DNA of 64,000 nt from an uncultured Oscillospiraceae bacterium. GTDB taxonomy: Bacteria; Bacillota; Clostridia; Oscillospirales; Acutalibacteraceae. A program made the position numbers and the translations under genes. This document shows positions 36,029-39,236 of the stretch, one piece after another (position 1 is the first letter of the stretch; each line of letters begins with the position of its first letter). The notes under the pieces are model-generated. The model was not told the origin of the DNA. It made no database searches and was given only the letters and a program-made list of their open reading frames with translations. Location: positions 118,187-182,186 of the forward strand of contig CATXDC010000004.1 in the NCBI GenBank assembly GCA_958366985.1. The letters are read 5' to 3'.

Positions 36029-36155
36029 ACAAAACGCCTCCTTTAACGGGACTTTATATTATATAATAACATTACGACGAATAAAAAACAACCGAAACAG
36101 AAGTTTAAGCATTTCGGTATCTGCAATAAAAGAAATTTTCGTTAAACCGCTGATA

Positions 36156-36184
36156 TTGACGATTGTACACATATGTAGTATATT
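36156..36184 (+). promoter_or_regulatory. sigma-A promoter TTGACG-17-TATATT for the RHH-led module; direct repeats TAGTATA x2 overlap and follow the -10
   Basis: Hexamers read directly from the sequence; TAGTATA occurs at 36177-36183 and 36190-36196, a candidate operator for the ribbon-helix-helix protein. Confidence 0.45.
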
Positions 36185-36225
36185 TTAATAGTATAACGTC
36201 ATATATGTCATGGAGGTGTTAAACC

Positions 36226-36429
36226 TTGGATGATAAAAAACTATACATTCCATCAAAGCTTTATAAAGGTGATACATCAGTTGTATCTGCAAGGCTTCCT
36301 AACAGCATGATTAAAGAAATAGACGCAATAGCTGAAAATACAGGCCGCAGCAGAAATGAAATAATTTCCATTTGTCTTGAATTTGCAATTAGTAATCTTC
36401 AAACTGAAAGCGACGAAAAAGAGGGATAG
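36226..36429 (+). CDS. ribbon-helix-helix (CopG/Arc-like) DNA-binding protein
   Basis: 67 aa; RHH signature ...VVSARLPNSMIKEIDAIAENTGRSRNEIISICLEFAI; likely TTG start at 36226 after a ggaggtg RBS. Confidence 0.6.
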   Translation: MDDKKLYIPSKLYKGDTSVVSARLPNSMIKEIDAIAENTGRSRNEIISICLEFAISNLQTESDEKEG

Positions 36430-36433
36430 CTTT

Positions 36434-37168
36434 ATGAAAAAGTCAGCTTTGATTATTGGGTTGACATATGGTGCGGCTGCATTAATTTACGGAATAATAT
36501 CATTAATGTTCTTTTTTGAAAAAACCACCGCTTTTTGGACAGGACTCTTAATAGTAGTTTTTTCCTGTGTCCTGAGCGCTGTAATTACTGTGTGTGTAAG
36601 CAAAAAACGTGATAATGCTTTTCCGCTTACAATATCAGTAAACCTTTTCTGCGGAATTTATGTATTTGCTGTAATTATAATCAATGTACTTATCGGCATA
36701 ATCTTTAAGGCAGGCACAGCGCCTTTGATTACTGCTCAAATAATATGCTTTGCTGTTTTTGCGGTTATAACAGCAGTTTTGCTTAAAGTAAAAAAACATA
36801 TTTCGGAGCACAGCATCATCGAAAATGATAAATCAAATGAGCTTAAAAAAATTATTTTTGAATGCGAAAAAATCAAGAATAAGCTTATAAAATTACCCGG
36901 TGAACAGCAGAAAAAAGCCTTGTCAGTAATTGACAGCATAATCGAGGAACTGCGGTTTTCAGATTTAAGTGTTTCCCCTGATATTTTGGAGATGGACGGC
37001 AAAATTTCATCTTTGATCGGTTTGCTCTCATCAGAAACCGATAATTTAATCGAAATACAGGCAGACGACATCACCGCTTTCGAAGAAATTGCAAATGATA
37101 TTAAAGCGCTTATCAAAGAAAGAAATGCACGTATTAAATTATTAATGAACATAAACAGCAAAATTTGA
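36434..37168 (+). CDS. integral membrane protein (4 TM) with C-terminal cytoplasmic coiled-coil domain; unknown function
   Basis: Start set at ATG 36434 (MKKSALIIG) after a gaggga RBS; four hydrophobic helices followed by a 120-aa charged helical tail. Confidence 0.55.
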   Translation: MKKSALIIGLTYGAAALIYGIISLMFFFEKTTAFWTGLLIVVFSCVLSAVITVCVSKKRDNAFPLTISVNLFCGIYVFAVIIINVLIGIIFKAGTAPLITAQIICFAVFAVITAVLLKVKKHISEHSIIENDKSNELKKIIFECEKIKNKLIKLPGEQQKKALSVIDSIIEELRFSDLSVSPDILEMDGKISSLIGLLSSETDNLIEIQADDITAFEEIANDIKALIKERNARIKLLMNINSKI

Positions 37169-37182
37169 GGAGGCAAAACCAA

Positions 37183-38493
37183 ATGGCAATAGTCGATGTA
37201 GTTAAGTATAACGGAGGTCCGGATGTATTCGCCTGGAAATATCCAAACGAAGAGCTGAGCACCTGGACACAGTTAATAGTTAACGAATCACAGGAAGCAA
37301 TTCTATTTAAGGGCGGAAAGGCCCTTGATGTATTTCAAAGCGGACGCCACACCCTTGAAACAGCAAATATACCGCTGCTGAATAATATCATAAATCTTCC
37401 CTTTGGCGGACGCTCACCGTTTACCGCTGAGGTATGGTACATAAATAAGATAAGTTCCCTTGATATAAAATGGGGGACTGCTTCACCTATTCAGCTTCAG
37501 GACCCCAAATATTCGATATTTGTGCCTGTAAGAGCTTTCGGCCAGTTTGGTATCAGTATTGAAAACTCAAAGCAGTTTCTGATTAAATTAGTCGGAACAC
37601 TTACTGAATTCAATAAAGCCAACATTGTAAAATATTTCAGAGGCTTATATCTTACAAAAGTAAAAGATGCAATTTCTTCATATCTTGTCAGCAAACAGAT
37701 AAGCATTCTGGAAATAAACGCATATCTTGAGGAAATTTCCGAGTACCTCAAGGAGAAAATGCAGCCGGTTCTTCAGGAGTACGGTATAAATCTTATTAAT
37801 TTCTATGTAAACGACATAAGTGTTCCCGAAGACGATACTGCCGTTATGAAGCTTAAAGACGCTCTTGCAAGAAAAGCCGAAATGAACATAATCGGCTACA
37901 ATTATCAGCAGGAACGCTCCTTCGACACTTTAGAGGAAGCTGCCAAAAATAACGGATCTGCAGGCGATATGATGGGTACAGGTCTCGGACTTGGTATGGG
38001 TATGGCAATGGGCGGAACAATGGGAAGCGAGTTTTCCTCTATTTCCAAAAACATCAACACCAAAGCTGAAGAAACCAAAACCTGCCCTTCATGCGGCGCA
38101 TCAATGCCCAAGGATAAGCGTTTTTGCTCAGACTGCGGATGCGATACTGCTGCACAAAAAGATGAGAATGAGGAAAAGGATAGCGGCACTATCAAATGCA
38201 GCAACTGTGGATTTGAGTATCCAAACACCGTTAAATTCTGCCCCCAATGCGGCGACAAATATAATCCCTGTCCACGCTGCGGAGCAGACAGGGCTGAAGG
38301 CGCTGAAGTATGTTCAAACTGCGGATATACCGAGCCAAAACCTTGTCCTCACTGCGGAAGCCCTCTTCCTGAAGGCGGAGCACGTTTTTGTCCTGAATGC
38401 GGTCAGTCTCTGGCTAAAAACTGTCCCACATGCAATGCACCTATTACAGGCAATCCAAAATTCTGCACACAGTGCGGAACTAAATTAATTTAA
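37183..38493 (+). CDS. SPFH/band-7-like (YdjI/virion-core-protein-like) domain fused to five tandem zinc-ribbon repeats
   Basis: N-terminal 260-aa SPFH-like region (MAIVDVVKYNGGPDVFAWKYP...) followed by a Gly/Met-rich linker (MMGTGLGLGMGMAMGGTMG). Five CxxCG-x8-10-CxxCG repeats follow: CPSCG..CSDCG, CSNCG..CPQCG, CPRCG..CSNCG, CPHCG..CPECG, CPTCN..CTQCG. RBS ggagg lies before ATG 37183. Confidence 0.6.
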   Translation: MAIVDVVKYNGGPDVFAWKYPNEELSTWTQLIVNESQEAILFKGGKALDVFQSGRHTLETANIPLLNNIINLPFGGRSPFTAEVWYINKISSLDIKWGTASPIQLQDPKYSIFVPVRAFGQFGISIENSKQFLIKLVGTLTEFNKANIVKYFRGLYLTKVKDAISSYLVSKQISILEINAYLEEISEYLKEKMQPVLQEYGINLINFYVNDISVPEDDTAVMKLKDALARKAEMNIIGYNYQQERSFDTLEEAAKNNGSAGDMMGTGLGLGMGMAMGGTMGSEFSSISKNINTKAEETKTCPSCGASMPKDKRFCSDCGCDTAAQKDENEEKDSGTIKCSNCGFEYPNTVKFCPQCGDKYNPCPRCGADRAEGAEVCSNCGYTEPKPCPHCGSPLPEGGARFCPECGQSLAKNCPTCNAPITGNPKFCTQCGTKLI

Positions 38494-38516
38494 TTTTAAT
38501 CTTAGGAGATATAATA

Positions 38517-39086
38517 ATGGATAATATTTCAGCAAATAAAGCAGTAAAAAAAACAAAAATAATCGCATGGATAGAAATAATCATAGGTATATTTCTAACT
38601 GCTTTCAATGGTTTTTTTGTTATTGTGGGAATAACACAGGCAAAAGACTCCACTGATGTAACTCTGATTGCTATATTCGGATGTCTTACGGCAGCAGGTA
38701 TTTTTCTTTTAAGATCAGCTCACCAGAGAAAAGATTTAATCAAGAAATTCAATGATTATTCAGCACGCCTGAAGAGTAATCCCTCAATGACACTACCAAA
38801 TTTAGCTTCGGAGGTCAATGAACCTATCACTGATTTGGCAAAAGATATAAGCAAAATGATTGTTTACGGCTTTTTCCCAAATTCATACATAGACGCAAAA
38901 ACAGGAAGGCTTATAACACCTGATTCAAACATGCAGACCACCTCTTTTACAAACCAGAATATACATACTGTTTCCGATAAACCCGAATACGTAACCGTAC
39001 AGTGCCAAAACTGCGGAGCAACTAATAAAATTGTCAAAGGTTCAGTAGGAGAATGTGAGTTCTGCGGTTCTCAAATTTCACAGTAA
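38517..39086 (+). CDS. membrane protein (2 TM) with C-terminal zinc ribbon
   Basis: Two N-terminal hydrophobic helices and a C-terminal CQNCG-x12-CEFCG zinc ribbon; aggag RBS. Confidence 0.55.
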   Translation: MDNISANKAVKKTKIIAWIEIIIGIFLTAFNGFFVIVGITQAKDSTDVTLIAIFGCLTAAGIFLLRSAHQRKDLIKKFNDYSARLKSNPSMTLPNLASEVNEPITDLAKDISKMIVYGFFPNSYIDAKTGRLITPDSNMQTTSFTNQNIHTVSDKPEYVTVQCQNCGATNKIVKGSVGECEFCGSQISQ

Positions 39087-39103
39087 AACTTACATATTAA
39101 AGC

Positions 39104-39140
39104 AAAACAGCGCATTTTTAGATGCGCTGTTTTTTGTTTA
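39104..39140 (+). terminator. rho-independent terminator closing the 4-gene plus-strand module
   Basis: aaaacagcgcatttttagatgcgctgtttttt. Confidence 0.7.
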
Positions 39141-39156
39141 TATTTTCTGTTATTTT

Positions 39157-39195
39157 ATAAAAAATACCGGAAAGCTTTACGCTTTCCGGCTATGT
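39157..39195 (-). terminator. rho-independent terminator downstream of the KH-domain gene on the minus strand
   Basis: ccggaaagctttacgctttccgg with a T-run on the minus strand. Confidence 0.6.
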
Positions 39196-39236
39196 CCTCT
39201 TTTTTGCTGTTAAAACGCAAACTTATTAAAGAATAA

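Follow-up and report, generated by a model that had tools for sequence, protein, structure and literature searches.

An accessory operon encoding a YdjI-type SPFH protein, two membrane proteins and an RHH-family protein in an uncultured Oscillospiraceae bacterium

SPFH proteins are universal membrane scaffolds, and to our knowledge few bacterial members of the family have defined partners. Here we describe an operon of an uncultured Oscillospiraceae bacterium that encodes an SPFH protein, two membrane proteins (designated fam4 and fam2) and an RHH-family DNA-binding protein. The operon lies in a 64,000-nucleotide stretch of contig CATXDC010000004.1 (positions 118,187 to 182,186; assembly GCA_958366985.1), which we refer to as the window and to which all coordinates of the operon refer. 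An initial annotation, made from the sequence alone, had described the SPFH gene and its two neighbours as a YdjG/YdjH-like arrangement without PspA. We find that the three families stay linked as one inherited unit across dozens of species, in unrelated genomic contexts and with PspA absent nearby. The locus is best explained as a self-contained, horizontally mobile operon that encodes a three-protein, membrane-associated SPFH complex and an RHH autorepressor.

The system with which the locus was compared is PspA-YdjGHI (SamGHI) of Bacillus subtilis. YdjI is a soluble SPFH protein with a low-complexity linker and a zinc ribbon; it requires YdjG and YdjH to form membrane foci, and two-hybrid assays have shown the proteins to interact (PMC8581546). 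The architectures of YdjG (two N-terminal ribbons, a YpeB-related NTF2-like domain and a C-terminal transmembrane [TM] segment) and of YdjH have been described (PMC11237479). SamI restrains SamGH signalling independently of PspA, and SamGH is deleterious when unrestrained (bioRxiv 10.64898/2026.02.06.704340). As a reference, the B. subtilis pspA-ydjGHI operon was taken from a metagenome contig and its domains were checked. This gave PspA_IM30 in PspA, Zn_Ribbon_TF in YdjG (44.2 bits), TPM in YdjH (82.6 bits), and Band_7_1 (146.9 bits) plus one ribbon in YdjI.

In the window, four closely packed genes on the forward strand (36226..39086) form one operon in the order RHH, fam4, SPFH, fam2. The RHH gene (36226..36429) is a fourth member in addition to the trio first noted. 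Intergenic gaps are 4, 14 and 23 nt, and a Shine-Dalgarno sequence precedes every gene (GGAGG, GAGGG, GAGGAGG and AGGAG), as expected from the earlier statement that each gene has its own ribosome-binding site. The tight spacing proposed initially also stands, but the genes do not overlap: all SPFH orthologues open with MAIV(E/D)VVKYNG, and the SPFH start is therefore placed at ATG 37183 and not at the overlapping TTG 37165. Only one promoter-like site and one hairpin terminator were found for the four genes.

The middle gene (37183..38493, forward strand) encodes a soluble, 436-residue SPFH protein of the YdjI/SamI (Band_7_1) type, in keeping with its initial description as an SPFH fusion. 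The protein is a member of Pfam family Band_7_1 (PF13421; 163.8 bits, cutoff 24) and also matches Zn_Ribbon_1 and DZR. TM segments are absent (maximum Kyte-Doolittle hydropathy of 0.85, with zero hydrophobic windows). A low-complexity Gly/Met-rich linker (residues ~258 to 285) follows the Band_7_1 domain and leads into 10 CxxC motifs, equivalent to five zinc ribbons, at residues 301 to 431; the protein thus has the soluble character, linker and C-terminal ribbons of YdjI-type SPFH proteins. A sequence search of the PDB gave no matches. The protein is 59 to 80% identical to orthologues in 80 species, and it aligns with B. subtilis YdjI at 21% identity over 250 residues (BLASTP E value of 8e-20; phmmer, 3e-25). 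Judged by sequence similarity, it represents a distant paralogous branch and not an orthologue of YdjI/SamI.

The gene upstream of the SPFH gene (36434..37168, forward strand) encodes fam4, a 244-residue protein. The initial annotation described a 4-TM protein with a charged helical cytoplasmic tail, and this is what was observed: hydropathy analysis revealed four hydrophobic segments (residues ~4 to 28, 31 to 58, 62 to 90 and 93 to 123), and 33% of the residues of the tail (119 to 244) are charged. Because of the charges of its loops (MKK.., SKKRD and VKKH), both termini are placed in the cytoplasm. The AlphaFold model (predicted local distance difference test [pLDDT] score of 82) contains helices at residues 2 to 24, 32 to 56, 63 to 90, 95 to 153, 156 to 174, 182 to 208 and 214 to 243. 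In this model the tail is an antiparallel helical bundle that runs on from TM4, and not the single coiled coil first supposed. Family alignments show two conserved motifs, (R/K)(F/Y)SD and a C-terminal KxRN. Fam4 was also thought to be one of two zinc-ribbon partners; its sequence contains no zinc ribbon, and fam2 is the only partner that carries one. A profile search retrieved 28 fam4 homologues from Clostridia genomes and metagenomes.

The gene downstream of the SPFH gene (38517..39086, forward strand) encodes fam2 (189 residues), which is a 2-TM protein (segments 12 to 42 and 45 to 68) with a single C-terminal zinc ribbon, as originally described. The ribbon, C163xxC...C180xxC, is unchanged across 26 homologues. 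In the AlphaFold model (pLDDT 80), the TM hairpin is followed by a stalk helix and a small alpha/beta domain, and then by a disordered linker (137 to 154) that leads to the C4 ribbon (158 to 188). The small domain (~88 to 135) is a PCI-like winged helix, and its closest structural matches are the winged helices of PCI-type proteins and of DDRGK1. Both fam2 and fam4 are integral membrane proteins with all folded domains facing the cytoplasm, and neither matches any Pfam, NCBIfam, PADLOC or PHROG family. Forty-two fam2 homologues were found in Clostridia genomes and metagenomes, and a full HMMER scan of 1.84 billion representatives gave 3,104 clusters at 50% identity with E values of ≤1e-3. The possibility that the fam2 ribbon is of the same type as those of the SPFH tail was examined and rejected, as the fam2 ribbon model scored at most 2.3 bits on the SPFH ribbons.

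We also noted aberrant fam2 proteins (P0128, P0132 and P0199). Among these, one variant architecture has four tandem winged-helix ("GFFPGAxLD") domains before a single ribbon, and another is a head-to-tail duplication of the entire protein. P0128 and P0132 are encoded on contigs of ~2 kb that show fam4 just upstream and nothing further. In P0199, the C-terminal half of an SPFH protein is joined to the C-terminal half of fam2; this was considered as a Rosetta-stone fusion and rejected, since it is a single case and probably a deletion or partial gene.

The partners differ from those of YdjI. Neither fam4 nor fam2 matched TPM (TPM_phosphatase, PF04536) at an E value of ≤0.1, and hhalign comparison of the fam4 or fam2 profile with YdjH gave a probability of 0.2%. 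Fam2 has no Zn_Ribbon_TF match and does not have the architecture of YdjG; only its ribbon aligns, residues 157 to 185 pairing with the second YdjG ribbon (50 to 79; QCxNCGA...CxFCG). This match is weak (29 columns in hhalign, with a probability of 44% and an E value of 2.3e-4; phmmer E value of 0.0022; 4.4 bits with the ribbon model). A B. subtilis PspA query had no match in the 64-kb window or in the open reading frames (ORFs) within 7 kb of the other loci (L001 to L089), and no YdjG or YdjH homologues were found in the same regions. Nor does PspA_IM30 recur among the 148 immediate neighbours. The absence of PspA in the initial description is upheld, but a relationship of the partners to YdjG and YdjH is not supported. 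Since fam4 is not YdjH, fam2 resembles YdjG only weakly and only in its ribbon, and PspA is missing within 7 kb on either side, the module is analogous in design to YdjGHI/SamGHI but not orthologous, and it is PspA independent in cis.

In order to determine how far the arrangement is conserved, one genome per GTDB species was scanned with the SPFH alignment. Relatives were found in 201 species, and the best 80 loci (those with 59 to 80% identity) were analysed; the partner families were called with fam2 and fam4 hidden Markov models, and a full-length SPFH gene was present in 79 loci. A cassette was defined as a multiribbon Band_7_1 gene with adjacent same-strand genes for a 4-TM bundle protein and a 2-TM winged-helix ribbon protein, and the window locus is such a cassette. 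The fam2 gene lies directly downstream of the SPFH gene in all 79 loci, and fam4 adjoins the SPFH gene in 69 of them (downstream in 64 and upstream in 15). The module thus is found in at least 79 bacterial species as an SPFH-fam2 pair and as the full trio in 69. The commonest orders are SPFH-fam4-fam2 (34 loci) and SPFH-fam4-fam2-fam2 (17 loci); the partners flank the SPFH gene in the window, as first noted, but not as a rule, and RHH-fam4-SPFH-fam2 is a minority variant (shared with L021, L024, L025 and L027). Searches that began with fam2 or fam4 homologues led to the same trio: a ribbon-bearing Band_7_1 gene was adjacent in every context examined, in at least five unrelated genomic settings. 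The co-occurrence analysis suggested by the initial annotation therefore yields a conserved module, since independent occurrence of the three genes in other genomes was not seen. The finding is real and is broader than was first supposed.

Beyond the cassette, the flanks are not conserved: 421 neighbour proteins fell into 321 clusters, and the top Pfam family among the 148 immediate neighbours was seen only six times. Pairwise identity matrices of the three families were congruent over 60 loci (Mantel r of 0.79 to 0.80, P = 0.001), which shows co-inheritance but does not demonstrate contact. The association of SPFH, fam2 and fam4 is far beyond chance. That the three are unrelated genes that happen to be neighbours is practically excluded, given this synteny in unrelated contexts and the congruent phylogenies. 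The distribution is wide and patchy, covering Clostridia families and the spirochaete genus Brucepastera. The latter locus (L065, Brucepastera parasyntrophica, Spirochaetota) lies outside the Bacillota; together with relatives in Bacteroides (L103, described below), it points to horizontal transfer or an older origin.

We lean towards a model, built by analogy, in which the two membrane proteins recruit and engage a submembrane SPFH oligomer for membrane organisation or stress sensing. The SPFH protein may oligomerise below the membrane, as suggested by YdjGHI/SamGHI and by SPFH cages. Fam2, the universal partner, would bring it to the membrane; in its anchored stalk and PCI-like winged helix, fam2 is similar to membrane adaptors of the DDRGK1 type, and its family-specific ribbon would sit on a flexible tether. 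Fam4 would be a second membrane subunit, either a sensor or a client, which the SPFH assembly would engage or hold in check. The output of such a complex is likely to be local membrane organisation or envelope-stress sensing.

The whole cassette resides in a strain-variable accessory insert of 3,140 bp (36095..39234). This was established by comparing occupied and empty sites in human-gut metagenome contigs that encode an identical ribosomal protein S16. A spacer of 144 nt separates khpA from rimM in the empty form (L091, L093, L094, L096 and L097); in the occupied form (L090, L092 and L095), the cassette lies antisense between the two genes. Empty-site contigs align with the window up to position 36094 and from position 39235 at 95 to 98.6% identity, and the insert replaces 76 nt of the empty-site spacer, including the original terminator of khpA. 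The insert interrupts an otherwise conserved ffh-rpsP-khpA-rimM-trmD cluster of one human-gut species, and its G+C content is 37.8%, versus 43% for the flanks. No target-site duplication, direct repeats or recombinase was found at its borders. No match of >80% identity was obtained among GTDB species representatives, which is consistent with the representative of this species lacking the insert.

Several observations weigh against the model of membrane organisation or stress sensing. The cassette is present in about a quarter of the sampled contigs and absent from about three quarters. At the same rimM site of a sister species (L001, 4671..5984; L002), two independent assemblies show the SPFH gene broken into a pair of ORFs (82 plus 322 residues in L001 and 82 plus 245 residues in L002), with fam4, fam2 and RHH intact; the split gene is probably a pseudogene, which suggests decay of the cassette. 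Because the cassette is dispensable within one species and its SPFH gene is split in the sister species, an accessory or conflict role fits at least as well as a housekeeping stress role. Ten of the 79 loci lack a detectable fam4, and fam4 may therefore be dispensable. Mean identity is 68% for SPFH versus 32% for fam2 and 25% for fam4, and a conserved core with fast-diverging partners is not explained by a simple anchoring model. Congruent trees are expected for any co-inherited genes and are no proof of contact; physical contact among the three proteins, and with it the stoichiometric complex proposed initially, is something that we infer from synteny and analogy. Homology of fam2 to YdjG or of fam4 to YdjH is not supported, and function is transferred from those proteins by analogy alone.

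These observations bear on a different reading, that of a mobile conflict system, which could work by abortive infection, by superinfection exclusion or by another anti-phage or anti-plasmid function. The SPFH protein would then check a membrane-perturbing fam4 and/or fam2 until an invader is sensed. Strain-variable insertion inside one species, the lower G+C content, the spread at 59 to 80% identity over Clostridia families and into Brucepastera, and the fast-evolving partners set against a conserved core all agree with it. One contig carries the cassette twice (L013 and L081), cassettes have RHH or XRE-type regulators attached to them, and some neighbours are integrases (five), resolvase helix-turn-helix proteins (four) or Ltp-type exclusion lipoproteins (four). 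The restraint that SamI imposes on the otherwise deleterious SamGH (bioRxiv 10.64898/2026.02.06.704340) offers a precedent. However, none of the four proteins matched a defence model in PADLOC 2.0 (2023 library), where the best E values (0.017 to 0.03) were to unrelated models, and none carries an enzymatic effector domain. Few of the 148 immediate neighbours match defence models, mostly generic helicases or kinases, and the neighbourhoods are mainly metabolic or regulatory and not defence islands. Phage and plasmid collections contain essentially no close relatives; in IMG/VR, 3 of 2.9 million viral contigs carry the module, all with the full trio. On balance, we consider a conflict system unlikely, if a serious contender. 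Literature searches on COG4260/"virion core protein" and on SPFH proteins in anti-phage defence yielded no description of the module.

The first gene of the operon (36226..36429, forward strand) has a TTG start and encodes a 67-residue RHH/CopG-family DNA-binding protein (Pfam RHH_1, 26.9 bits, cutoff 20.5; PHROG CopG-like repressor, E value of 1e-6). It is 74% identical to the RHH protein of locus L003. An RHH gene is found upstream of 14 of the 79 cassettes, in each case with an upstream fam4 gene. Ahead of the operon, a sigma-70-like promoter with a putative RHH operator between its -35 and -10 elements was identified (36156..36184, forward strand; promoter scan, 10/12). Its sequence is TTGACGATTGTACACATATGTAGTATATT, with the layout TTGACG-AT-TGTACACA-TA-TGTA-G-TATATT (-35, TTGACG; -10, TATATT). 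The arrangement TTGACA-N2-TGTA(A/T)ACA-N2-TGTA-N-TACAAT is kept upstream of the RHH genes in the cassettes of ~11 other species; loci that share this noncoding layout include L010, L014, L015, L017 to L019, L021, L022, L024 and L025. Since RHH-type cassettes share TGTA(A/T)ACA-N2-TGTA between the -35 TTGACA and the -10 TACAAT, autorepression is suggested. The motif is likely to be an RHH binding site that overlaps the promoter, and the RHH protein is a probable autorepressor that would shut the promoter via the TGTAnACA operator (36164..36178). The operon is closed by a bidirectional intrinsic terminator hairpin (39104..39133, forward strand; a 13-bp stem followed by a T run), and a second hairpin identified in the same scan (39166..39190, reverse strand) is the terminator of the convergent khpA gene.

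The linkage of an RHH gene to the module, together with the frequent role of winged-helix and zinc-ribbon domains as nucleic-acid binders, raises the question of whether the fam2 winged helix and ribbon and the five SPFH ribbons bind nucleic acid, with the module tethering DNA, RNA or a transcription factor at the membrane as a gated switch. MarR and AsnC regulators are among the nonsignificant Foldseek matches, and the YdjG ribbon has been speculated to bind DNA (PMC9239133). We judge this to be highly improbable. The best structural matches, the PCI-type and DDRGK1 winged helices, are protein-protein modules; the winged-helix segment is not basic (net charge of ~-1 over residues 94 to 133, read from the sequence); the ribbons are C4 knuckles that are short and have no basic patches beside them; and 65 of the 79 cassettes have no RHH gene.

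Ribbon proteins also accompany more distant members of this SPFH branch. Band_7_1 genes with 38 to 39% identity occur on a Bacteroides finegoldii replicon (L103) and on a Butyrivibrio plasmid, followed by a fam4 homologue (E values of 5e-9 and 2e-10, respectively) and by a third gene, whose product joins an N-terminal zinc ribbon to a soluble helical domain. The Bacteroides ribbon is of the fam2 type (E value of 3.7e-7); that of Butyrivibrio was seen by reading the sequence and did not match the fam2 model. Extended Oscillospiraceae cassettes encode extra small proteins with a fam2-type ribbon or with an N-terminal ribbon and a TM segment. Partners that bear a ribbon thus seem to recur in this SPFH branch, and the tethered ribbon on the partner is a candidate docking element.

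A wider proposal draws on these extra proteins. The cassette would be a hitherto unrecognised, self-contained mobile membrane-surveillance system, in which a highly conserved SPFH cage beneath the membrane holds the fast-evolving fam4 and fam2 and the extra ribbon proteins inactive until envelope damage or phage attack occurs, the family-specific ribbon serving as a docking tag by which variable membrane proteins attach to the cage. If true, the Psp/Sam systems would have in it a counterpart that does not depend on PspA and that acts as an accessory immunity or stress island. We rate this as quite unlikely; the model of membrane organisation or stress sensing is preferred.

Further features of these cassettes were recorded. 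The extra proteins are encoded at L003 (7302..8909), at L009 (7976..9673) and downstream of fam2 in L012 to L018. One is a soluble protein of 133 residues that ends in a fam2-type zinc ribbon; several combine an N-terminal ribbon, MKCxxCGxxFEGKFCxNCG, with a TM segment, and some of these also have PASTA and Ltp (phage exclusion lipoprotein) domains. In L003 (2320..3246), L012, L013 and L081, a gene for an Ion_trans (voltage-gated-type cation channel) protein abuts the RHH gene with zero gap and may be cotranscribed with the module. L013 and L081 are two complete RHH-type cassettes located ~120 kb apart on contig JBMNVR010000001.1 of Candidatus Howiella. An IMG/VR contig (L105, 10696..12000) has a second, divergent SPFH paralogue (E value of 2e-91) between fam4 and fam2. 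In the B. finegoldii locus, a proline-rich segment and a further C-terminal region take the place of the SPFH ribbons, and a YidD-like gene precedes the SPFH gene.

The YdjI/SamI branch was shown only recently to act with dedicated membrane proteins, and the module described here provides a second partner set. This set is apparently more widespread, with ~3,100 fam2 clusters at 50% identity and with fam4 reaching the Bacteroidota. No description of fam2 or fam4 was found in literature searches. The module yields testable hypotheses on how soluble SPFH proteins dock to membranes. Its cultured carriers include Clostridium amylolyticum DSM 21864, Anaerocolumna aminovalerica DSM 1283 and Clostridium cadaveris JCM 1392, and natural plus and minus strains of the human-gut species exist for comparison.

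Other SPFH proteins also are co-encoded with a dedicated membrane partner for which they act as a scaffold, as in the SPFH-NfeD operons (stomatin/PH1511-PH1510 and QmcA-YbbJ) and in HflK/C-FtsH. The likeness to these systems is that an SPFH oligomer organises or restrains a co-encoded membrane partner. Unlike the protein described here, their SPFH proteins are membrane anchored and belong to Band_7 proper, and their partners are FtsH or NfeD (a TM protein with an OB-fold, with or without a ClpP-like protease). The operon proteins gave no NfeD match in Pfam or NCBIfam and contain no protease domain, and the AlphaFold models of the partners, all-helical for fam4 and winged helix plus ribbon for fam2, are not those of NfeD proteins. 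The eukaryotic DDRGK1/PCI adaptors resemble fam2 in fold alone (16 to 17% identity over 75 to 83 residues); they belong to unrelated organisms and pathways and have no zinc ribbon.

SamGHI differs from the module in several respects. It is under sigma-W control, whereas the module has an RHH regulator, is accessory and mobile, and has no pspA in its operon or within 7 kb. YdjH is a TPM-domain protein, whereas fam4 combines four TM segments with a helical bundle in the cytoplasm; YdjG has its two ribbons at the N terminus, then the NTF2-like domain and a C-terminal TM segment, and fam2 has the reverse layout; and the YdjI tail has one ribbon, compared with five in the window protein. In both systems the SPFH protein is soluble, is of the Band_7_1 type, and has a Gly/Met/Asn-rich linker and one or more C-terminal ribbons; its gene shares an operon with those of two membrane proteins, of which one bears one or more ribbons.

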